Origin: Patescibacteria group bacterium
Lineage (GTDB): Bacteria > Patescibacteriota > Minisyncoccia > Phycocordibacterales > PALSA-1337
Assembly (NCBI GenBank): GCA_038061795.1
Contig: JBBTYL010000001.1
Location: 1,801 to 65,800 of the forward strand
Direction: 5' to 3'
DNA: 64,000 bases
Both the position numbers and the translations under genes were made by a program. Of this stretch, positions 1-55,236 are shown piece by piece. The notes beneath the pieces were generated by a model. The model worked only from the letters and a program-made list of their open reading frames with translations, was not told the DNA's origin and ran no database searches. Positions within the stretch are counted from its first letter, which is position 1. The number at the start of each line of letters is the position of its first letter.

Positions 1-3000
1 GAGTGCTACTGCGGAAAGTATCGTGGAATCCGATACAAGGGAATCGTCTGTGAAAAGTGCGGAGTTGAAATCACACGATCAATCGTCCGACGAGAGCGAA
101 TGGGGCACATCGAGCTTGCGACGCCGGTATCTCATATCTGGTTCCTTCGATCGATGCCGTCACGAATCGGACTTGTGCTCGGAATGACGACAGCAGACCT
201 CGAAAAAGTCGTTTATTTTGCCGGATACATCGTTACGAAGATCCATCAGGGCGAAAAGGACAGTTTCCTCAAAGAGCTTGATTCAGAATTCAGGACGAAA
301 GTGAAGGCTGCTCAGGACGAGAAGACCAAAGAGGCTCTGAAAGAGCTTGTCGTCACAGCACGAAAGGAAATCGAAAGCCTCGAGCCAGGTTTCGTCATGG
401 ACGAAGTCATGTATCACAAGTTCTCAATGAAGTACGGAGCACTTTTCGAGGCGAACATCGGAGCTGAAGCAATTTTTGAAATACTCAAGAAGACTGATCT
501 CAACAAGCTTCAAGCAGAACTCGAAGGAGAATTGCAGAAGGCAAGCTCACTTGAAAAGGAGAAGCTTTCAAAGCGAATCTCCTTAATCAAATCGATGATT
601 AAGTCAGGGACTCGCCCAGAGTGGATGTTTCTTACTCGAATTCCAGTTATTCCACCAGCATTGCGACCGATGGTTGCTCTCGATGGAGGACGATACGCAA
701 CATCAGATGTTAACGATCTTTACCGACGCGTCATCAACCGAAACAACCGTCTATTGAAATTGAAAGAGATCGATGCTCCAGACGTCATTCTCCGAAACGA
801 GAAGCGAATTCTTCAGGAAGCAGTCGATGCTCTTATCGACAACTCTATCCGACACGGCGCGGCTACAGGCGCAGCGGCCATACAGGCTCAGAAGCGAGCC
901 CTCAAGTCTCTTTCAGACAACCTGAAGAGCAAGCGAGGCCTCTTCCGACAGAATCTTCTCGGAAAGCGAGTGGACTATTCAGGACGATCGGTTATCGTCG
1001 TGGGACCAGAACTTGCGCTTGACCAGTGCGGACTTCCAAAGCACATGGCGCTTGAACTTTTCCGACCATTCGTCATTTCAGGACTCTTGAAGCGAGAACT
1101 CGCTTTCAATATCAGAGGCGCAGGACGACTCATAGATGACGGATCAAAGGAAGTCTGGGAAATCCTCGAAGAAGTGATCAAAGGCAAGTACGTTCTTCTT
1201 AACCGAGCACCTACGCTCCACCGACTCGGTATACAAGCCTTCCGACCAATCCTAATTGAGGGAAACGCTATTCAGGTGCACCCGCTCGTATGTACGGCTT
1301 TCAACGCTGACTTCGACGGAGACCAGATGGCCGTTCATGTTCCACTTGGAGTTGAAGCGCAGCTCGAGGCAAAGGAAATCATGGCGTCTGACAAGAACAT
1401 CCTCAAGCCAGGCAATGGAGATCCTACAGTCGTGGCGAAGCTTCTTGACATCGTGCTTGGATGTTTCTGGATCACAAAGACAGTTGATGGAGACAAAGGC
1501 GAGGGCAAGATTTTTGAAAGCCCGGAAGCTGCTCTTACCGCTCATAATTTCGACATTGCAACCTACAGAGCAAAGATAAAGATACTTCCTCCTGAAGATG
1601 CCAAGTACAAGCAGTTCGATGGAAAAATCTTCGAGACGACAATCGGAAGAATCCTTTTCAACGAAATGCTTCCTTCAGATTATCCTTTCATCAACAAAGA
1701 AATCGATCGAAAGAAGCTTTCAGCTATTATCGATGATTTGATCATCTCTCACGGAATTGAAAAGATTCCTGGAATCCTCGACGGAATCAAGAAGTTCGGA
1801 TTCAAGTACGCGACACATTCAGGAACAACATGGGGTATTGACGATGTTGTTATTCCAGAAGGAAAGAAAGAAGTCATTTCAAAAGCAAAGGCTCATTCAG
1901 AAGAAGTCATGCACCAGTTCGGCGAAGGACTCCTTACAGACGAAGAAAGACTCCGAAAGAATATCGAAATCTGGCACAAGGCAAAGAACGACGTCGAGAA
2001 GCTTATCCCAGGATCGCTTGATCGAATGGGATCAGTTTACGACATGGTCAACTCTGGAGCTCGAGGATCATATTCTCAGATTACTCAGATGGCAGGTATG
2101 AAGGGTCTTATTGCATCTACATCAGGAGAGACGATCGAATTCCCGATCCTCTCATGTTCAAAGGAAGGACTTACTCCGATTGAATATTTCATTACGACTC
2201 ACGGTTCTCGAAAGGGTCTTACCGACACAGCGCTCAACACAGCGAAAGCCGGTTACCTCACCCGAAAGCTCTTCGTCGTCGCGCAGGATGTCATGGTCAA
2301 TGAGGATGATTGCGGAACCAAGGAATCAATTACTATCAAGAAGCAGACAGCATCAGGCATCAGCATTCCTCTTTCAAAGAACATTCGAGGACGAGTGCTC
2401 GCTGAAGATCTCGCAGATACGTCTGGAAAAGTTCTATTCAAGAAGAATCATCTCCTCACTAAGCAGGAAGCGGTTCAGATCGAGGATGCGGGCGTAAGTG
2501 CGGTTCGAGTACGCTCACCACTCTCATGTAAGAGTATCCGAGGTGTTTGTGCTCAATGTTACGGAGTAGATCTCGGACGAAACAAGCTCGTTGATCTCGG
2601 TGAAGCAGTCGGAACAGTTGCAGGTCAGGCTATCGGAGAACCTGGAACACAGCTTACAATGCGAACATTCCACGCTGGAGGTACAGCGTCAGTCGGAGGA
2701 GATATCACTCAGGGTCTTCCACGAGTCGAAGAAATCTTCGAAAAGCGACGACCAAAGAACCCAGCTGTCGTTGCGACAGTCTCTGGAACAGTTACAGAGG
2801 TAAAGGATCTTGGAAAGGAGAAAGTCATCAAGATCATGCCAGAGCTCGAGGACCGAGCCAAGGGAAAGAAGGCAAGCGAGGTGGAGTATCTCTACAACAT
2901 CAAGCGAGTCCCTCTTGTGAAGGTTGGCGACAAGGTCAACAAGGGAGACATCATTACTGACGGTTCAGCAGATATCGATGAGAAGTTCGAATATGCAGGT

Positions 3001-3483
3001 GCAGAAAAAGCAAAGAACTACGTGATCAGCGAAGTCGGAAAGATTTACGAGCTTCAGGGAGAAACGGTGGCGCGAAAGCACATTGAGATCATCGTGAAGC
3101 AGATGTTCTCACGACGAAAAGTTACGAATTCCGGCGATACGAGCCTCGCAGAAGGAACTATCGTAGATGATACACAGCTTCAGGAAGAGAATGCGAAGGC
3201 AAAGGAAGCTGGAGGTTCAGGAGCAAAGGCAGAGCCAGTCGTGATGGGTATCACAGAAGTGTCACTCTCACGAAAGAGCTTCTTGTCAGCAGCGTCCTTC
3301 CAGCATACGACTCGAGTTCTCATCAACAGCGCCGTTCGAGGCAGCGAAGACGATCTCATTGGTCTTATGGAAAATGTCATCATCGGTCGCCTCATCCCAG
3401 CGGGTTCTGGATTCATGGGAAGCCCGAAGCAGAAGATGATCGAGACTGTTCAGCCTACGGAGGAGGAGATGAATAGCTACTAG
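1..3483 (+). CDS. rpoC: DNA-directed RNA polymerase subunit beta' (5' end cut by window edge)
   Basis: Frame 1 is open from base 1 (ECYCGKYRGIRYKGIVCEKCGVEI zinc motif) and runs into ORF 100..3483. The NADFDGDQM catalytic motif is present. Confidence 0.97.
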   Translation, partial: ECYCGKYRGIRYKGIVCEKCGVEITRSIVRRERMGHIELATPVSHIWFLRSMPSRIGLVLGMTTADLEKVVYFAGYIVTKIHQGEKDSFLKELDSEFRTKVKAAQDEKTKEALKELVVTARKEIESLEPGFVMDEVMYHKFSMKYGALFEANIGAEAIFEILKKTDLNKLQAELEGELQKASSLEKEKLSKRISLIKSMIKSGTRPEWMFLTRIPVIPPALRPMVALDGGRYATSDVNDLYRRVINRNNRLLKLKEIDAPDVILRNEKRILQEAVDALIDNSIRHGAATGAAAIQAQKRALKSLSDNLKSKRGLFRQNLLGKRVDYSGRSVIVVGPELALDQCGLPKHMALELFRPFVISGLLKRELAFNIRGAGRLIDDGSKEVWEILEEVIKGKYVLLNRAPTLHRLGIQAFRPILIEGNAIQVHPLVCTAFNADFDGDQMAVHVPLGVEAQLEAKEIMASDKNILKPGNGDPTVVAKLLDIVLGCFWITKTVDGDKGEGKIFESPEAALTAHNFDIATYRAKIKILPPEDAKYKQFDGKIFETTIGRILFNEMLPSDYPFINKEIDRKKLSAIIDDLIISHGIEKIPGILDGIKKFGFKYATHSGTTWGIDDVVIPEGKKEVISKAKAHSEEVMHQFGEGLLTDEERLRKNIEIWHKAKNDVEKLIPGSLDRMGSVYDMVNSGARGSYSQITQMAGMKGLIASTSGETIEFPILSCSKEGLTPIEYFITTHGSRKGLTDTALNTAKAGYLTRKLFVVAQDVMVNEDDCGTKESITIKKQTASGISIPLSKNIRGRVLAEDLADTSGKVLFKKNHLLTKQEAVQIEDAGVSAVRVRSPLSCKSIRGVCAQCYGVDLGRNKLVDLGEAVGTVAGQAIGEPGTQLTMRTFHAGGTASVGGDITQGLPRVEEIFEKRRPKNPAVVATVSGTVTEVKDLGKEKVIKIMPELEDRAKGKKASEVEYLYNIKRVPLVKVGDKVNKGDIITDGSADIDEKFEYAGAEKAKNYVISEVGKIYELQGETVARKHIEIIVKQMFSRRKVTNSGDTSLAEGTIVDDTQLQEENAKAKEAGGSGAKAEPVVMGITEVSLSRKSFLSAASFQHTTRVLINSAVRGSEDDLIGLMENVIIGRLIPAGSGFMGSPKQKMIETVQPTEEEMNSY

Positions 3484-3516
3484 CAAGGAAGATAGGATAA
3501 TTTAATAAAAGCGAAA

Positions 3517-3543
3517 AGAGCCCTAGAAATAGGGTTCTTTTTG
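3517..3543 (+). terminator. Rho-independent terminator after rpoC
   Basis: AGAGCCCTA-gaaa-TAGGGTTCT stem followed by a T-run. Confidence 0.8.
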
Positions 3544-3557
3544 TATGTGGACATCTA

Positions 3558-3587
3558 TTGACTTTTAGCTATAAATCGTGGTATAAT
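3558..3587 (+). promoter_or_regulatory. Sigma-70-type promoter
   Basis: TTGACT (3558-3563), 18-nt spacer, extended -10 TGgTATAAT (3579-3587). Confidence 0.65.
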
Positions 3588-3684
3588 ACATGCCAGTGAC
3601 GTAAGGAGATAGGTGTGCATCTCTTAAATAAAAACCCCAAGGGCCTCTGGCTCTCGCACACACTTTGAAAATTGGAGACTAGTT

Positions 3685-4155
3685 ATGAAACAAACAGGAA
3701 AATTACTCGTAGCTCAGCTTTTGCTGATTGCTGCAATTATCGCTGCTGGCGTCATGTTCGCTGTTTACCATCCGCTAGTCAAACTGGAGGAGGTAGGCAG
3801 AGTTCATGTCCAAGATTATGGTCCCTGGACTGGCTATACAGTGTTCACTGATTCCGAAAATGGAAACCCTGCCTGGTGCGAACTTCCGATGTGGGTACAA
3901 AATGATCGCCAGGGCAAACCAATGTGGGGCTACGTGCTGGTGAATGAGACCAGCTCGATCCAATACCTCAAACAGGTCCTTGGAATGGAGCTCATTCCGT
4001 TTGGAAACTTTGCTGATCAAAAGTATCTTAATAATCGTGTGCTCGCACCATTCTATGCAGGCGACACTAACTACTGGGATCCGATCAAAAGGGATTACGT
4101 TTCGACGGAGCCTAAAAAGTTCTTCGTCATTGTTTCCCTCAGCAAAAAAACTTAG
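3685..4155 (+). CDS. Hypothetical membrane-anchored protein
   Basis: GGAG RBS upstream, N-terminal hydrophobic helix (LLVAQLLLIAAIIAAGVMFAV), own promoter and terminator. No family recognised. Confidence 0.7.
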   Translation: MKQTGKLLVAQLLLIAAIIAAGVMFAVYHPLVKLEEVGRVHVQDYGPWTGYTVFTDSENGNPAWCELPMWVQNDRQGKPMWGYVLVNETSSIQYLKQVLGMELIPFGNFADQKYLNNRVLAPFYAGDTNYWDPIKRDYVSTEPKKFFVIVSLSKKT

Positions 4156-49031: not shown

Positions 49032-49379
49032 TCATGGCTTGTGGATGAATATGAGCATCTTGTGTTCTTTGCCAGATTCACCACCCTGATCAATAAGACG
49101 CTCATAAGTCCCAACATCTTCGCTGTCATCTGTTCTGACAACTCCGTTTTGCGTCCAGCCGATTTGTATTCTGCCGAGTACTGTGCCTCGTGGACTTCTG
49201 GATCCTTCCCACTCAAGTACGTACGCTTTCGTACTAAATTTCCGCATGCCTCTCAGTACCGAACTTATTCGAGTATCCTGTTTTTCCAAACCAAGCCTGG
49301 CACTTAGTTTGCGGGGAAGAGCAGCGTTATCCAAATGCTCAGAGATGTCGGTCACTGTAACTTTGGGTTTGTTGCTCAT
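49032..49379 (-). CDS. Hypothetical protein (115 aa)
   Basis: AGGAG RBS 6 nt before ATG 49379 (MSNKPKVTVTD). The longer ORF-track version (to 49568) overlaps the upstream gene. No family recognised. Confidence 0.6.
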   Translation of the reverse strand: MSNKPKVTVTDISEHLDNAALPRKLSARLGLEKQDTRISSVLRGMRKFSTKAYVLEWEGSRSPRGTVLGRIQIGWTQNGVVRTDDSEDVGTYERLIDQGGESGKEHKMLIFIHKP

Positions 49380-49389
49380 GGAAACTCCT

Positions 49390-49650
49390 TTAGACGTCCA
49401 GAAGTGCGCAGCCATTTGAACAATAAATCGCAACTTGCCCTGGCGAAATTGGATTACTGCACCCCTCACGCTCGCAGAGACGTCCTTTTGGATGTCCATT
49501 TGGCAGCCATCCATTGCCATTGCAGGTCGTGCAGCCGTGGCCACCGCAATCATCGCATTGTACTGCATTGAATGGGAAGTGCTTATTTCTTGGTATGTCC
49601 ATAGGTCCTTTCAGTTGTGCTAGCCACAAGCTAGCGGGTGCATTTGTCAC
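49390..49650 (-). CDS. Small zinc-ribbon protein with two DnaJ-type CxxCxGxG motifs
   Basis: CDDCGGHG and CTTCNGNG plus further Cys pairs. The start is either GTG 49650 or ATG 49602 (AAGGA RBS). Confidence 0.6.
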   Translation of the reverse strand: MTNAPASLWLAQLKGPMDIPRNKHFPFNAVQCDDCGGHGCTTCNGNGWLPNGHPKGRLCEREGCSNPISPGQVAIYCSNGCALLDV

Positions 49651-49687
49651 TATATAAACATAATAAATAGGGTTTGTCTATTACGAT

Positions 49688-49728
49688 GCTCACTCTAGCC
49701 TACGATTCTAGAGTAATGGGAAGCATAT
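49688..49728. repeat. Repeat B copy 1
   Basis: GCTCACTCTAGCCTACGATTCTAGAGTAATGGGAAGCATAT. Internal CTCTAG/CTAGAG hairpin. Paralogous to 50403..50446. Confidence 0.75.
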
Positions 49729-49791
49729 AAAAGTTTAACCGCGCCTATCAATCAAGTAGTGCGCGGTTATTCGAGATTTCTCTCCGGATTT

Positions 49792-50265
49792 TCACCGAGT
49801 GGGGTTACCACTATCATATTTTTTGACACCGGTTTCATCTAGGCTTGGCTGCTCGCTTGGTTTTTGAGAAAGCGTGGCGTCAATTTTACTTTTTCTCATC
49901 TGTTCGCCAATAATCTCAGCAAATAGGCGTGTTTCGGGTTGAAGGTCGTGAGCGTACTCGATCTTCGCGCTTATTACCCGCTGCGTTATCTTAACGCGTG
50001 CCCAAACAAGATGTTTTGTTTTTTCGTTGGATGAACCACAGATGAGATATACGAACTCAATCTCATCGTCATTGATCCATCGCTGCCGCGTTGCCCAGCG
50101 CGACTGTTCGAGGATGTTCCGTACGATTTCTTTGGCCATATCCGTCAGTCGGTGGCAGGTTGCTTTTCGCTCATTTCTCCATACAAAGAAGAAGAAGGGA
50201 GCGCTGACTGATAACATGATGATTAGGAGGAGAAACATGCGGTCGGATGTATTTTCGAGGTTCAT
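49792..50265 (-). CDS. Hypothetical membrane-anchored protein (157 aa)
   Basis: N-terminal TM helix. Shared promoter (TTGACT 50397-50392, TACTAT 50374-50369) and a conserved leader hairpin. Confidence 0.65.
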   Translation of the reverse strand: MNLENTSDRMFLLLIIMLSVSAPFFFFVWRNERKATCHRLTDMAKEIVRNILEQSRWATRQRWINDDEIEFVYLICGSSNEKTKHLVWARVKITQRVISAKIEYAHDLQPETRLFAEIIGEQMRKSKIDATLSQKPSEQPSLDETGVKKYDSGNPTR

Positions 50266-50288
50266 GATTTTTGTTTGGTTTGTGGGTT

Positions 50289-50331
50289 AGCCGTATCTCA
50301 CAAGGCACCTAATGCCCTAGGAGACACAGCC
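50289..50331 (-). promoter_or_regulatory. Conserved 5'-UTR hairpin (copy 2)
   Basis: An 18-bp imperfect stem on the minus-sense RNA, paralogous to 52883..52926. Confidence 0.55.
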
Positions 50332-50402
50332 AACTTTTTCAAACCTTTCGAAAACCACTACTATAAACATAGTAGCATATTTTTAATATAAAGTCAATAG
50401 AA

Positions 50403-50446
50403 GCTCGCTCTAGCCTAAGATTTTAGAGCAATGGCGAAGAGTGTAT
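50403..50446. repeat. Repeat B copy 2
   Basis: GCTCGCTCTAGCCTAAGATTTTAGAGCAATGGCGAAGAGTGTAT. Sits between a terminator and the shared promoter. Confidence 0.75.
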
Positions 50447-50494
50447 AAAAAATTAACGCCTCCTTGCGGGGGCGCTGTGTAATTGTTTTTGTTC

Positions 50495-51043
50495 TTAAGC
50501 ACACACCGGTTGCCCAAGATGGTTCCAGTCAAAGAACACGCACTCTTCGGTTTCGGTTATGTTTCCAACTAATTTGCCGATATCTTCTCCGGGGTACATC
50601 GAATGAACTATCAGAGCAATCTGTCCATCTTCGATCCGAAGTTCATAGGCTAGTGTGAGGAATTTCGTCGGCGGGGCAGTCAAATCAGTACGGTTGGTTT
50701 TGACCCGCAAAGCCTGGCTTCTTCTGTTCGGAAAGTATTCTTCAAGATCATCTGGCTTGTACTTGGCCAGTTCATCCGTCCCAGACCAGCCGATAATCGA
50801 GTCATGTCTGATGCAGACGCTATTTTCAAGTGATCCTTCTGCAAAGGCCTCGCAAGCATCAGCAATTAGTTCGTGAAATACGATGGCATCACTCAGCACT
50901 TCATAGACATTGTTCCACAGGCAGAAATTTCCTGCTCGCCTGAATGATCTGCCTCGAAAACAGGTTTTGAATAAACGTTGTTTGGTTTTCTCCCGAACGA
51001 TGACTGCTATGGGTCCTATCGGACTCTTGGTTTTAATGTGCAT
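50495..51043 (-). CDS. Hypothetical protein (182 aa)
   Basis: GGAG RBS and a terminator CGCCCCCGCAAGGAGGCG+T-run downstream. No family recognised. Confidence 0.65.
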   Translation of the reverse strand: MHIKTKSPIGPIAVIVREKTKQRLFKTCFRGRSFRRAGNFCLWNNVYEVLSDAIVFHELIADACEAFAEGSLENSVCIRHDSIIGWSGTDELAKYKPDDLEEYFPNRRSQALRVKTNRTDLTAPPTKFLTLAYELRIEDGQIALIVHSMYPGEDIGKLVGNITETEECVFFDWNHLGQPVCA

Positions 51044-51235
51044 ATTATTCTCCTGCCAGTAATTTCTGGCTCAGGTCTATGTGGATAGTATAGAACTAGT
51101 TCAGCATACTGTATGTGAACCTTTCGATATTGACATGTTATGTATAGTGTGTCAAGTATACGAGGGTTGGATTTACTTGTTGAACTGACATGGTAAATGA
51201 AAAAGTGCCAGTGAAGCTGGTATTTTTTCATTTTA

Positions 51236-51322
51236 CTGCTCCACGGATTACATCTTTGCCGAACTATATAGGATATATCCTTTGGTTAAATTGAGTATGG
51301 GGAGGGTGGGAAGCTGGGTTTA
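51236..51322. repeat. Repeat A copy 1
   Basis: The core is 65/72 nt identical to copy 3. Contains the perfect palindrome AGGATATATCCT. Abuts the stop codon of 51325..51660. Confidence 0.85.
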
Positions 51323-51324
51323 TT

Positions 51325-51660
51325 CTAGAATTTTGCTCCCATCGCAATTATAAAGAGTAACATTGTGGCTATAAACCCAAGAAATAAAACTAGAAGTACT
51401 TTTGCAATCATTGCAGGAGCTTTTTTGACCGGTATGCTAGTTTGCCCAGATTCTATTGTGGGCTGTGGATGTAAAAAAACTAAGATTAGGATTGAAATGA
51501 TAAGTGGAAGATTAAGTGCTAAATTAATAAGTATTCCCTTTATATGTCCGTCTTGAATGCTAGCCATCATCTGCCCAAGAGCGAAAAAGGTAGATAAAGA
51601 ACCTGTGATAAGAAAAAACCAAGCAATACCCCTAACGATTTTTATTGGATTATTATTCAT
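51325..51660 (-). CDS. Hypothetical membrane protein (111 aa)
   Basis: Three or four hydrophobic helices. No family recognised. Confidence 0.65.
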   Translation of the reverse strand: MNNNPIKIVRGIAWFFLITGSLSTFFALGQMMASIQDGHIKGILINLALNLPLIISILILVFLHPQPTIESGQTSIPVKKAPAMIAKVLLVLFLGFIATMLLFIIAMGAKF

Positions 51661-51697
51661 ACCCAGTATTATCCCAATAAAAAGTTAAAAATGCTAT

Positions 51698-51778
51698 CTG
51701 CTCTCCAGATTACATCTTTGCCGAACTATACAGAATATACCCTTTAGTTAAATCGAGTATGGAAAGGGTGGGGGAGTT
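51698..51778. repeat. Repeat A copy 2
   Basis: Same module. The palindrome is degenerate (AGAATATACCCT). Followed by a terminator shared in sequence with copy 3. Confidence 0.85.
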
Positions 51779-51863
51779 TAGTTTCAAATAAATGAAAAAC
51801 CCGCCGATCGAGTTTCTCAATGAAACTGTCGAGGCGGGTTGTTAGGATGCGGTTCGAGGAAAC

Positions 51864-52040
51864 TTATTTCCACGCTTTTCGGTCCAGGCGACTAATACCT
51901 GTGAGGGCGATGCCGATTCCGATGATCGCAGCGTAAATAAACTTGCCGTTGACCACATAAGCTGTAGCTAATCCTCCAAGCAGCATGATGCAGCCAATAA
52001 TTACCATTAGTATATCGAAGTTCTTTTTAATAAAGTTCAT
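51864..52040 (-). CDS. Small membrane protein (58 aa)
   Basis: MNFIKKNFDILMVIIGCIMLLGGLATAYVV... with two TM helices. Below the ORF-track cutoff. A strong terminator lies at 51797-51845. Confidence 0.5.
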   Translation of the reverse strand: MNFIKKNFDILMVIIGCIMLLGGLATAYVVNGKFIYAAIIGIGIALTGISRLDRKAWK

Positions 52041-52076
52041 AGAGCAAAGTTTTGTTTATGGAACTGTCGAAGCGGA

Positions 52077-52838
52077 TTATTTTGGTTCTGGAATTTCTTT
52101 CCCCGTTTTGTCGAGGTAGTATATCCCAGCTCCAATGTTGGCTGTGTATCCGGTGTCTGACGGCGTGATGCCGTGATAACCTTTGGAAACCTCATCGCCA
52201 TACTTATCCAGAAGGTAGGTCATCGCGCCACGACGACCGTACCTTTCTCCATTAGATAGACGACCAGTGCTATGGTAGTAGTTACTGACCGGAGATTCGT
52301 GAGTTCCTGCAAGGTATTGACGAGCATTGTTGCCATTCACGATTTTTTCGAAGGGAACGACTTCAAATGCTACAATTCCATCATTCGGGATCACTCCGAT
52401 TTCTTCGACAACCGCTGGAGAACTTTGGCCTCGCCCGATGAATATCGAGGTGAAGTGTGCCAGATCCATGGAATAGGTGAAATGAGTGTTCGCCGTGCCG
52501 CGCAGACGGTAGTTGATCGTGTACGTATAGCGACTTTTCGCTGACAGGCCGTCCCAATGCGACTGCGTCGAGATCAGCTCGAAGCGATCTGACAGGTACA
52601 CAGTGACGTGGCTACCGGTAACCAAATTATCGCCAGCCTTCTTAGGACTGACGACGCGGATCGCGACGTCATGATGTTGGACCGTAAAGGTCGCGGTCTT
52701 GATGGCGTCTTCGGACACGGTGTTTTCAAGCGACACCACCTTACCAACAAATTTGTTTGGCATTGGCGCAGCAGCGTTGACAGTTGAATTGATGGACGAA
52801 GCGGTAATTACTGCCAGGAGGGCAAGGATTTTTTTCAT
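52077..52838 (-). CDS. Secreted hypothetical protein (253 aa)
   Basis: Signal peptide MKKILALLAVITASSINSTVNAAAP. Shared promoter (TTGACT 52992-52987, TATCAT 52969-52964) and leader hairpin. Confidence 0.7.
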   Translation of the reverse strand: MKKILALLAVITASSINSTVNAAAPMPNKFVGKVVSLENTVSEDAIKTATFTVQHHDVAIRVVSPKKAGDNLVTGSHVTVYLSDRFELISTQSHWDGLSAKSRYTYTINYRLRGTANTHFTYSMDLAHFTSIFIGRGQSSPAVVEEIGVIPNDGIVAFEVVPFEKIVNGNNARQYLAGTHESPVSNYYHSTGRLSNGERYGRRGAMTYLLDKYGDEVSKGYHGITPSDTGYTANIGAGIYYLDKTGKEIPEPK

Positions 52839-52882
52839 ATTCTATTTACTGTTGATTTGGTTTTTGTTGAGGCCAAATTGTT

Positions 52883-52926
52883 GGCCGTATCTCTCAAAGC
52901 ACATTAATGCTCTCAGAGATACGGTC
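52883..52926 (-). promoter_or_regulatory. Conserved 5'-UTR hairpin (copy 1)
   Basis: GACCGTATCTCTGAGAGC-loop-GCTTTGAGAGATACGGCC on the minus-sense RNA. Confidence 0.55.
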
Positions 52927-52997
52927 AACTTCAACAGATATGTCAAAAAACTGCTACGTAAATATGATAGCATATATTTTATATAAAGTCAAATAGA

Positions 52998-53076
52998 GGC
53001 TCCACAGATTACATCTTTGCCGAACTGTATAGGATATATCCTTTGGTGAAAATAAGTATGGAAAGGGTGGGGGAGC
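52998..53076. repeat. Repeat A copy 3
   Basis: Lies between the terminator of 53151..53477 and the promoter of 52077..52838. Contains AGGATATATCCT. Confidence 0.85.
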
Positions 53077-53150
53077 TTGTTTAAAATAAACAAAAACCCG
53101 CCTACGGTTAGAACGTAGTGCGGGCTCAACGATGATGCTCATTGGGTCTA

Positions 53151-53477
53151 CTAGGAAATGGTCGGGATCTCGTCTTTGAAGCGCTCCTTAATTGCTTCCA
53201 TGATGTGCCTTGCGGCCACATTAGGGTCGTCAATAGAGATATTGGCGTCGCGGAACGCGTGCACCGCTCCCATTACCCATCCTTGTGGATTTTCACCAGT
53301 ACCCATTCTTTGCATTTGTTGACGAGCAAACTCAAGAAATAGGTCTGGTCTTTTGGTAATTTCCTCAAGCATCAGTTGACGAATGCCTTGGCCACCAAGA
53401 TCATACTTGTCTTGTCCACCTAGGACGAACTCTGTGACGTACTCGGTGATTTTTTGGAGAGAGTCTTTATTGTCCAT
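53151..53477 (-). CDS. Hypothetical protein (108 aa)
   Basis: Shared promoter (TTGACT 53585-53580, TATTAT 53562-53557) and terminator CCCGCACTACG...CGTAGGCGGG+T5. No family recognised. Confidence 0.65.
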   Translation of the reverse strand: MDNKDSLQKITEYVTEFVLGGQDKYDLGGQGIRQLMLEEITKRPDLFLEFARQQMQRMGTGENPQGWVMGAVHAFRDANISIDDPNVAARHIMEAIKERFKDEIPTIS

Positions 53478-53794
53478 ACTTCAATGTTTCGGTGAATTGA
53501 TTCGGAACACCTTGGCTTCCTTTCTAAAAGCCGATTAGCAAAAAACTGCTATTTTTATAATAGCATACTTGTTATAAAAAGTCAAATAGATGCCCCACGC
53601 TGTAAACGAAATTATAACCTATTTTCAGACGACAGAGCAGATGCACTACATCCCAAATATGACGGATTGTTTGTATCCGTTGGTTCGACCACAGACCATT
53701 TGACTAATCTAGCTAAGTATGTTATTTTGTGGTCTGAAACCTAAGCCAATGCTTGGGTGGCTGCACACTCCAAACCAAAGAAAAGGAAACACTT

Positions 53795-54529
53795 ATGGCA
53801 ACTGACGGACCAACTCCGCCACCCTGCAACCCCGACATTTTCAAGAAAGGCAGAGGTGTCTGCGTTCTTGACGGCAGCTCCAACGCTGTCGAAACCTGGG
53901 TCCAGGCAGTGGCAAAGAAAGCAAACGCTCAGGTCGACTGGCATTATAGCGGCGGCCGAGCAAACGTTCTGCACCTCGGTGACGATGAGAGTCGTCAACG
54001 TGTCCTGAACGCGATCAGCGAACTCGAAGGCGAACTGAAAGGCACGATCCTCAGCGTGGACGGCCCCGCCCTTTACCGGAACGGAGTCGAAGACCCTGAA
54101 GCGACCGGCGCGGTCGTCCGTGAAGTAAACGGACAACTTGTCCTCGATGATCCGGTGGCTGTTGGCGTGATAACTGCGGTGAGCAAGGTCAATTGCAAGA
54201 ATACGCTGGAGCTGAACGCAGATCGGGTCACGCATTTCAAGACTCGGCTCTCGGAGCGCGGTATGACTGCCCAACAGGCGGTGATCGTGCTCCTCAATGT
54301 GGACGACCCTCATGGTGGTCCGCTCGCCGATGTCCTCATGCCAGGACACAACTGGCAGGAAATCCGCGACAAGGGAGAAGTCCCTTTTGCTCGAGGCCTC
54401 GCCATGCGTGGCGGCATTCAGGAAGCTCTCGGTGCTTTCGACAAAGATGCGGCAACGAAGTTGCAAAGCATGACCGATGTGGCTGTCGTGGTCGTTGATC
54501 ACGGAGTCGCTGAGGTCTTTGTGGCTTAG
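53795..54529 (+). CDS. Hypothetical protein, visibly GC-rich gene (244 aa)
   Basis: AAGGAA RBS before ATG 53795 and a TTGACT-N17-TATTTT promoter. Its amino-acid composition is plausible, unlike the mirror ORF on the minus strand. Confidence 0.65.
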   Translation: MATDGPTPPPCNPDIFKKGRGVCVLDGSSNAVETWVQAVAKKANAQVDWHYSGGRANVLHLGDDESRQRVLNAISELEGELKGTILSVDGPALYRNGVEDPEATGAVVREVNGQLVLDDPVAVGVITAVSKVNCKNTLELNADRVTHFKTRLSERGMTAQQAVIVLLNVDDPHGGPLADVLMPGHNWQEIRDKGEVPFARGLAMRGGIQEALGAFDKDAATKLQSMTDVAVVVVDHGVAEVFVA

Positions 54530-54621
54530 TTCGGAATCTTCAAGATGACACAAAACAAACTGGCGCACGACCCTCGGGTACGACGCCTTTTTTCTTTTAG
54601 ATTAAGTTTATCTGAATGTTT

Positions 54622-54921
54622 CTAGCTTAAAAAATTAAAAGCAGTAAAAATAGAAAATTTTATCCTTGATACATTAGAAGATTTAGAGTTACCTTCAATG
54701 TTAGATCCGATATTAACTGCTACAATTTTTATACCTCCTCCAACCTTTCCTGATATATTTTCTTCTACCGAAACAGCAATATCAAAATCAATTTTACTTT
54801 TCATATCTCCAAGAGTAAAAGGCCCCTCACCTCCGAGTTCCTTAATTATTTCTTTGTTTCCTTCTCGAATCCCAGTTCTAATATCAAGAAGACTCTTTTT
54901 TATAAACTCTTTAAGCTCCAT
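54622..54921 (-). CDS. Small protein, possibly trypco2-like
   Basis: An N-terminal helix followed by KIDFDIAVSVEE...GGGIKIVAVNIG...VSRIKFSI beta-pattern, as I recall for trypco2 (trypsin-co-occurring domain 2). The ATG begins 2 nt after the tRNA-Asn discriminator base. Confidence 0.55.
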   Translation of the reverse strand: MELKEFIKKSLLDIRTGIREGNKEIIKELGGEGPFTLGDMKSKIDFDIAVSVEENISGKVGGGIKIVAVNIGSNIEGNSKSSNVSRIKFSIFTAFNFLS

Positions 54922-54922
54922 G

Positions 54923-54994
54923 CTCCGGCGGCAGGGATCGAACCTGCGACCAATCGCTTAACAGGCGACTGCTCTACCGCTGAGCTACACCGGA
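54923..54994 (-). tRNA. tRNA-Asn (anticodon GUU), CCA not encoded
   Basis: Cloverleaf folded by hand: acceptor TCCGGTG/CGCCGGA, D-arm GCTC/GAGC, anticodon loop CTGTTAA, T-arm GCAGG-TTCGATC-CCTGC. Confidence 0.93.
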
Positions 54995-55014
54995 ATCCTG
55001 CTATAATAGCAAAT

Positions 55015-55236
55015 ATGTATGTAAAAGTGAAGATAAAACCTGATTCGAAGAAGGAAACCGTGATTAAGGTTTCAGATGACCACTACGAAATTTCAGTCAG
55101 AGAGAAGGCGGAAAACAACAACGCCAACTCCCGATTGCTCGAAATCATGCGCAACGAACATCCGGACTCGATAATCCGCATCATTTCAGGCCACCACTCG
55201 CCAAGCAAGATAGTGAGTATAGATAAAAAGGAATAA
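55015..55236 (+). CDS. DUF167 (YggU-like) protein
   Basis: VKVKIKPDSKKE...ENNNANSRLLEIM...IISGHHSPSKIV pattern. Confidence 0.75.
   Translation: MYVKVKIKPDSKKETVIKVSDDHYEISVREKAENNNANSRLLEIMRNEHPDSIIRIISGHHSPSKIVSIDKKE

Follow-up and report, generated by a model that had tools for sequence, protein, structure and literature searches.

We analysed a 64-kb stretch of DNA from a Patescibacteria group bacterium (contig JBBTYL010000001.1, positions 1,801 to 65,800; 'the window' below means this whole stretch of 64,000 nucleotides), in which a module of about 80 nt, here called the A module, occurs three times in an island of small genes next to a tRNA-Asn gene. The module is a coding sequence under purifying selection, and its peptide appears to be the tail at the very C-terminus of a large serine recombinase (LSR). 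Most likely, the three copies in the window were left as attR-type scars by LSR elements that integrated one after another at the 3' end of tRNA-Asn.

A conserved coding module in three copies

A repeat search of the window recovers the A module as one family of three direct repeats with 80-85% identity (51238-51317, 51700-51779 and 52999-53078); the three copies of about 80 nt reported by the first-pass annotation are real, and the window has no others. Each of them matches the 20-mer GATTACATCTTTGCCGAACT exactly, and the block GAGTATGGrrAGGGTGGG also occurs three times; neither is present elsewhere in the 64 kb, and three matches were reached in none of 100 shuffles. Copies in relatives were found in two rounds: genome and metagenome collections were scanned for exact patterns, and the fetched loci (numbered with L below) were then searched with an nhmmer profile. 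That the 20-mer looks invariant among relatives is in part due to the scans for exact patterns, and copies found with the hidden Markov model (HMM) vary there.

With their reading frames included, the copies span 51237-51353 (copy 1; core GCTCC at 51238-51242, frame CSTDYIFAELYRIYPLVKLSMGRVGSWVYSR..., stop at 51351-51353), 51699-51791 (copy 2; core variant GCTCT at 51700-51704, frame CSPDYIFAELYRIYPLVKSSMERVGEFSFK, stop at 51789-51791) and 52998-53084 (copy 3; core GCTCC at 52999-53003, start-less frame GSTDYIFAELYRIYPLVKISMERVGELV, stop TAA at 53082-53084), all on the plus strand, which is opposite to that of the neighbouring genes. Every copy encodes xS(P/T)-DYIFAELYRIYPLVK-x-SME(K/R)-x-G(K/E)L-x-YLR-stop. 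A Nei-Gojobori-type count over the six frames of 10 full copies gives this frame (PDYIFAELYRIYPLVK.SME) a ratio of nonsynonymous to synonymous differences (pN/pS) of 0.26 and one stop, against 0.47-1.6 and 8-19 stops for the five other frames; the antisense frame that shares its wobble positions stands at 0.47, with a stop in every copy, and the remaining four at 0.8-1.6. Beneath the invariant ELYRIYPLVK.SM the codons vary (Leu CTA/CTG/CTT, Tyr TAT/TAC, Arg AGG/AGA/CGG, Pro CCT/CCG, Val GTN), and so does the tail in the long-form relatives (Leu TTG/TTA/CTC, Arg AGA/CGG/AGG), in which the stops TGA, TAG and TAA share one position. The first-pass annotation, which treated the module as an intergenic element, had missed this coding sequence.

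An in-frame start codon is absent from 11 of the 12 copies, some of which have a stop just 3-5 codons upstream. Similarity among copies starts abruptly at GCTCC, and the sequence upstream of it is unrelated from copy to copy. The peptide had no match in Pfam, NCBIfam, PHROGs or PDB searches. Two other coding arrangements were discarded: minus-strand coding with an ATG-TAA start and stop, given the pN/pS of 0.47 and the stop in every copy of the minus frame, and a micro-ORF from the internal ATG (MEKIGKL.YLR), which was dropped once the entire frame proved conserved.

The leading idea of the first-pass annotation was an operator or upstream regulatory element, with a dimeric regulator of the cassette promoters bound at a perfect 12-nt palindrome. 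The palindrome, AGGATATATCCT, is indeed perfect in copies 1 and 3, while copy 2 deviates from it (AGAATATACCCT). The placement between a terminator and a promoter, also in favour of an operator, holds for copy 3, which is flanked by a terminator (about 53090-53130) and a minus-strand promoter, TTGACT-N17-TATCAT (52992-52964); copy 2 is preceded by a terminator (about 51793-51840), but no convincing promoter follows it. Copy 1, as described, abuts on the opposite strand the stop codon (51325) of a 111-aa gene, and a hairpin comes next. The module further contains a minus-strand pair resembling -35 and -10 boxes (TTNACY, 15-nt spacer, TAYAGT). The changes in the palindrome, however, are codon wobble: its degraded form in copy 2 consists of AGG to AGA (Arg) and TAT to TAC (Tyr), both synonymous, and the seemingly compensatory palindrome CGGATATATCCG in L028 and L021 consists of AGG to CGG (Arg) and CCT to CCG (Pro). 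In L053, L060 and L061 the palindrome is lost and the peptide kept. Orientation and spacing vary as well: in L022 its orientation to the downstream gene is reversed, its distance to the promoter ranges from 0 to about 100 nt, and a terminator separates copy 1 from the next promoter. The -10-like box is absent in L053, a loss on which an internal minus-strand promoter was also rejected. We regard an operator as very improbable.

We consider it equally improbable that the module is a structured non-coding RNA, or an element resembling a tRNA, that shares the transcript of tRNA-Asn or is transcribed in its manner. Such an element would agree with the weak terminal pairing of the module, with its GTTCGG stretch resembling a T-loop and with L035, where the module takes the position of the tRNA relative to the downstream flank. 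Yet single-sequence folds of both strands are no better than those of shuffled sequences (z-scores -1.2 to +0.4), pair counts for two candidate structures on 12 copies equal those of shuffled controls, and the energies from alifold, which the first-pass annotation had proposed as a check for RNA-level conservation, are weak. Rfam returned no match in either gathering or E-value mode, and ARAGORN nothing for the module. Ideas of a tmRNA-like element or a template repeat of a diversity-generating retroelement were set aside for misfits of strand or architecture.

Probable origin in an integrase gene

To find the parent protein, 5.8 billion proteins were searched with a profile and 1.84 billion representatives, exhaustively, with an HMM. 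In both searches, the motif is seen only at the C-terminal end of open reading frames (ORFs) of at most 184 aa; it is carried by 39 database clusters. Most of the N-terminal parts are mutually unrelated, and a subset shares an upstream region, which is the C-terminal region of an LSR. L065 shows this region in full (...HADYEYQNTVATVISVARRAKYIFEQSSDIVGKRAFLNYLLQNPTVLEKTLGFTLRSPLNLVLELL-GS-PTYIFAELYKIYPLIKLSMEKMNRL). It matches, by tblastn, a 533-aa phage ORF with Resolvase, Recombinase and Zn_ribbon_recom domains, and a profile of eight LSR C-terminal fragments aligns with the phage LSR at residues 435-500 of 533 (hhalign, probability 95%, E 2e-8). An intact LSR of 553 aa with the same three domains is present in L045, convergent with and overlapping tRNA-Asn.

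Because the upstream region contiguous with it in relatives is the C-terminal part of an LSR, the module peptide appears to be encoded by the very end of an LSR gene, which would place GGCTCC about 30 codons before the stop of that gene. No recombinase-length protein with the tail was found among the 5.8 billion or the 1.84 billion sequences searched, which would be expected if integrated copies end in tRNA-antisense codons and only excised elements have integrase and tail in one piece. A long target gene X with a displaced 3' end was considered and abandoned, since no recombinase-length protein carries the tail and X would be the integrase itself. An origin in phages was likewise rejected, as there was no DNA match in a phage collection and three viral-contig pattern scans yielded chance matches only.

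The strong purifying selection on the peptide and the occurrence of the motif in 39 database clusters could also be those of a stand-alone micro-protein gene (about 30-50 aa), natively convergent with tRNA-Asn and duplicated with the cassettes, its link with the integrase being secondary. The single copy lying 8 nt from tRNA-Asn in L061/L064 agrees with this, as does one copy in L053 that has an ATG and a gene call on 25 contigs. Against it stand the lack of an in-frame start in 11 of 12 copies, several with a stop 3-5 codons upstream, the N-terminal parts that are unrelated except for the LSR C-terminus, and L065, where the tail continues the LSR reading frame. We consider such a gene unlikely.

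A separate observation concerns the LSR C-terminal fragments of L056 (5776) and L065 (1921-1924), which share their starting point, immediately behind an in-frame TGA (TGA-ITK(D/P)xYDKK...), despite an identity of only 56%. They may have been truncated at a common position, or the TGA may mark a site of recoding or frameshifting that has escaped recognition in this integrase family.

Attachment sites at tRNA-Asn

The tRNA-Asn(GTT) gene of the window (54922-54994, minus strand) has the 3' end ...CCGGAGC, which carries the shared core on the attB side; the common core, GGCTCC in the sense of the integrase, corresponds to GGAGCC at the tRNA-Asn 3' end. Four configurations of an attachment (att) site are seen around it. 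The attP-like one, in L065, consists of the LSR C-terminus, GGCTCC and the tail. In the attL configuration of L056, an LSR C-terminal fragment (56% protein identity with L065, E 4e-27) is followed by GGCTCC and the reverse complement of tRNA-Asn, and its frame runs into the tRNA, ending ...DHPDW-LRRQGSNLRPIA-stop. L022 has attB, tRNA-Asn ...CCCGGAGCC followed by GTCTAGTGAGCCC and a hairpin; L035, from the population of L022 and offset by 35 nt, has attR, the module ...CTGGGGAGCC followed by the identical GTCTAGTGAGCCC and hairpin. The flanks around GGCTCC are exchanged as expected among the four, and physical linkage to an LSR is seen in L065, L056 and L045.

Strain comparisons place the recombination breakpoints exactly at the GCTCC end of the module. 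The same 116-aa gene with its promoter has an A module upstream in L044/L055 and a B module, a second type of scar treated below, in L042; homology starts at GAGCC. In all three window copies the ~27 nt that follow the core agree exactly, wobble positions included, which we infer to reflect a putative binding half-site of the integrase. Among the options offered by the first-pass annotation, a recombination site comes closest: the module carries half of an integrase attachment site, with the breakpoints at its GCTCC end.

The hairpin that follows copy 1 immediately in the sense of the tRNA (51195-51233, minus strand, with a U-run) recurs after a B scar in the relative L055 (6028-6065) and resembles the terminators after tRNA-Asn in relatives. 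We interpret it as a displaced terminator of the tRNA-Asn type, the former attB flank.

Conceivably, it is ordinary homologous recombination, following natural transformation for instance, that reshuffles the cassettes, with the modules as homology anchors or local segmental duplications and no site-specific recombinase involved. This would suit the gain and loss of cassettes between modules of one type (L055 has two cassettes more than L042 between its B modules) and the fact that promoter and terminator modules are repeated too. It leaves unaccounted for the exact junction between tRNA and module that shares only GGAGCC, the half B module in L039, the fusion of an LSR fragment with tRNA-Asn at that core, and the conservation across lineages with a 43%-identical formyltransferase, and on these grounds we hold it to be quite improbable, more so than the micro-protein gene.

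The tRNA-Asn locus shows further peculiarities. In L044 (2640-2800) and also in L055, a 19-20-nt direct repeat of the tRNA 3' end (GATCCCTGCCGCCGGAGCC) lies ~140 nt after tRNA-Asn, preceded by a degenerate tRNA 3' half; it looks like a classical partial-tRNA att scar, and other integrases, possibly of the tyrosine type, may use the site too. In three relatives the tRNA-Asn(GTT) gene is split in the anticodon loop (L028, 9596-9634 and 10256-10295; L048, 12519-12554 and 13131-13171; L061, about 395-680, minus strand) by an insertion that measures about 600 nt in the first two and about 240 nt in the third. These tRNAs are missed by ARAGORN, and the insertion looks like a group I intron, with an HNH-like ORF inside it in L028 (9666-9992). 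In the window, the ATG of a 99-aa gene (54622-54921) abuts the tRNA-Asn 3' end (...CCGGAGCATGGAG; 54919-54925) without a terminator between them, and the gene is probably co-transcribed with the tRNA.

Probable integration scars and their accumulation

How could the tail of an integrase come to be scattered among unrelated genes? In the mechanism that we favour, the crossover core GGCTCC would sit inside the integrase gene, ~30 codons before its stop, and integration would split the gene. The body of the integrase would land beside the tRNA (attL), its reading frame continuing into the tRNA antisense strand, which would give the integrated form a tail ...LRRQGSNLRPIA or ...GSGGRDRTCDQSLNRRLLYR. 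The last ~30 codons (DYIFAELYRIYPLVK.SMEK.GKL.YLR-stop) would go, with the P-arm half-site, to the far end of the element (attR), where they would be joined to whichever DNA then followed tRNA-Asn. Repeated integrations and the decay of older elements would push earlier scars and leftover cargo deeper into the island, leaving tandem copies of the same orientation separated by unrelated small genes.

Scars of the attR type would account for the constant orientation towards the tRNA, the location in an island, the unrelated cargo and the missing start codons, and the conservation at codon level would stem from each tail having evolved within a working integrase in its donor. We infer that all three window copies arose by LSR integration, though the window holds no integrase.

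Several observations weigh against integration scars. No LSR gene or fragment is detectable by tblastn in the 64-kb window. LSRs normally recombine only attP with attB, and attL and attR are not reused, so that scars could accumulate in tandem only if an additional step restored attB each time. The four att configurations were drawn from different lineages, and the attB/attR pair of L022 and L035 alone comes from one population. To the eye, neither L065 nor the window copies have a clear dyad centred on GGCTCC. Some copies may, moreover, be expressed or located elsewhere: in L053_2 (= P0128) an ATG coincides with the junction, and this copy is annotated as a gene of 51 aa on 25 contigs, and in L060 the motif lies between obg and a transglycosylase gene with no tRNA nearby.

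A tentative extension of the scar mechanism is that the exchange of the last ~30 residues upon integration and excision acts as a switch of integrase stability, activity or directionality. The episomal form would carry the conserved DYIFAELYRIYPLVK.SMEK peptide, kept by purifying selection, and the integrated form a short tail encoded by the antisense strand of tRNA-Asn. This seems possible but rather doubtful.

Distribution in relatives

Further A copies are found in L008/L028 (a metagenome-assembled genome of Saccharibacteria and its metagenome twin), in L021, in L022 with three, in L035 with an extra one, in L044/L055, and in L053 with two diverged ones. The window itself derives from a patescibacterial genome of Hainich groundwater, probably one of Saccharibacteria; among the relatives, only the Saccharibacteria genome bears a finer label. 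The module is conserved in distant relatives and belongs to no larger duplicated block in the window, so that neither confinement to three copies nor a larger duplicated block with coding sequence, the two outcomes that the first-pass annotation had set against its own idea, is what we find. L028 is syntenic with the window, and its formyltransferase is only 43% identical, against about 80% for the module; closer relatives, with formyltransferase genes (fmt) 75-87% identical, mostly lack the module. Greater similarity of the module than of the formyltransferase, together with its absence from many closer relatives, fits horizontal spread.

Wherever tRNA-Asn or the backbone could be located, the copies, downstream of tRNA-Asn or in the syntenic island, have one orientation relative to it (window, L044/L055, L053, L022/L035, L028, L061/L064); L021, L059 and L065 could not be checked in this way, and L060 is at another locus. 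The module of L022, inverted relative to its flanking genes and promoter, has the same orientation to tRNA-Asn as in the window, which speaks against a promoter-proximal operator and likewise against a 5' leader. In L061/L064, the single copy ends 8 nt from tRNA-Asn. Beside it, L061 carries a diversity-generating retroelement (bAvd and reverse transcriptase, 2401-3800) 2 kb from the module copy, and in L064 an rve-type transposase of an insertion sequence lies just upstream of the module.

This distribution also bears on the suggestion that the module is a miniature inverted-repeat transposable element (MITE) or similar non-autonomous element. Multiple copies, patchy occurrence and inverted ends would be in keeping with one, and the inverted ends noted in the first-pass annotation are present, but they are only 6-7 nt long and imperfect (CTyCCC / GGGGAG). 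The target-site duplications that it proposed to look for at the copy boundaries are absent from all 12 copies. The orientable copies all point one way relative to tRNA-Asn, most of them in one island; conservation is at codon level; and no transposase is associated except the unrelated insertion sequence of L064. A MITE-like origin is therefore very unlikely.

The variable island

The copies lie in an island of orphan cargo genes (49032-54921, minus strand) that extends from tRNA-Asn towards lower coordinates. The genes at 54.9-59 kb (priA, def, fmt, a hibernation factor gene and tRNA-Asn) show the window to be chromosomal. In all fmt relatives examined, the stretch bounded by tRNA-Asn and the hibernation factor gene at one end and by conserved genes at the other (TspO and, in several relatives, a copper ATPase cluster) holds a wholly different set of genes, and is thus a hypervariable island. 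None of its small minus-strand genes (49-55 kb) has a Pfam match. Most have their own TTGACT-N17-TATnAT promoter and a terminator, and A or B scars separate the genes. The module has neither the R''-L''...L'-R' architecture nor the GTTRRRY core of an integron attC site, which was rejected accordingly, and no tyrosine recombinase occurs among the window ORFs scanned at 37.9-55 kb.

The B module is represented in the window at 50396-50445 (minus strand; ending ...GAGCGAGC, between a terminator and a promoter) and at 49682-49729 (minus strand). B modules (...GCTCTAAAATCTTAGGCTAGAGCGAGC) always stand in the sense of the tRNA. In L042, one that ends ...GCGAGCC is followed by 35 nt identical to the sequence after tRNA-Asn ...CCGGAGCC in L045, and the B modules were probably left as scars by another family of integrases, perhaps that of the L045 type. 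The cassette of a 182-aa gene (51162-50412) is 89% identical in L039, where it is shared from just upstream of the -35 box to the middle of B, so that L039 holds half a B module.

A possible degenerate relative of the A module is a 37-aa ORF at 53590-53703 (plus strand) with an ATG (MPHAV...HYIPNMTDCLYPLVRPQTI, containing ...HYIP...LYPLVR...). It occupies the expected position of a scar, just upstream of the promoter at 53585, but its similarity is weak and not significant (hhalign E 0.015), and it was not accepted as a fourth copy.

Near-identical strong promoters (TTGACT-N17-TGnTAnnAT) drive the cassettes and tRNA-Asn alike (52964-52992, 53557-53585, 50369-50397 and 55003-55031, minus strand). 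On its opposite strand, too, the promoter module has the score of a promoter, directed into the scar. In several cassettes the promoter is followed by a long hairpin of the 5' untranslated region with 22-nt arms (hairpins at 52880-52929 and about 50286-50340).

Implications and comparison with known systems

Integrase attachment scars in tRNA-anchored islands are a known kind of feature, to which the swapped tail would add a twist. A puzzling conserved 'intergenic' repeat would be explained as the footprint of integrase traffic, and the region downstream of tRNA-Asn as a hot spot of orphan-gene gain and loss in Saccharibacteria-like Patescibacteria, members of the candidate phyla radiation (CPR). 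For annotation, this means that such modules should not be called operators, small RNAs or small hypothetical proteins. The tRNA-Asn 3' end and about 50 bp around GGCTCC at the integrase 3' end form a candidate natural pair of attB and attP for CPR-native serine integrases, and a possible tool, since CPR bacteria are hard to manipulate genetically. If the tail swap does act as a switch, LSRs would have a counterpart of their own to integration-dependent immunity, in a family of elements shaping the genomes of Saccharibacteria and other CPR bacteria.

The array of genes recalls the cassette arrays of integrons in its small, unrelated genes of the same orientation, its recurring element associated with recombination and its one fixed anchor site. 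Unlike integrons, it has no IntI, most of its cassettes have their own promoters and terminators, and the recurring element is conserved in sequence and coding.

With LSRs of the phiC31, Bxb1 and A118 type, the system shares integrases with Resolvase, Recombinase and Zn-ribbon domains at the site, a short core between dissimilar attP and attB, and hybrid attL and attR. In the textbook phages of this type, attP lies beside the int gene; the core here would lie inside the int frame, so that integration would exchange the last ~30 residues. Canonical attL and attR are not reused, whereas the tandem scars here need an extra step.

Integration-dependent immunity of mycobacteriophages, which Broussard et al. 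reportedly described in 2013, involves an attP inside the 3' end of the repressor gene and tyrosine integrases. The likeness consists in an attP core at the 3' end of a phage gene and in a C-terminal tail that changes with integration; the repressor gene is affected there, by tyrosine integrases, while here it would be the LSR's own tail.

The closest resemblance in island architecture is to the tycheposons of Prochlorococcus, tRNA-anchored islands built by successive integrations, the remnants of which are kept (bioRxiv 10.1101/2020.12.28.424599). In both, the island adjoins a tRNA gene, new elements insert at the tRNA and older ones are pushed inward, gene content differs among strains, and att repeats and fragmented integrases are strewn among unrelated cargo; a minority of tycheposons also use large serine recombinases. 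Their scar, however, is a partial tRNA copy, and most of their integrases are tyrosine recombinases that carry the tRNA 3' end. The scar described here shares only about 6 nt with the tRNA and would be the displaced C-terminal coding tail of the integrase, in a host that is a patescibacterium with a small genome.

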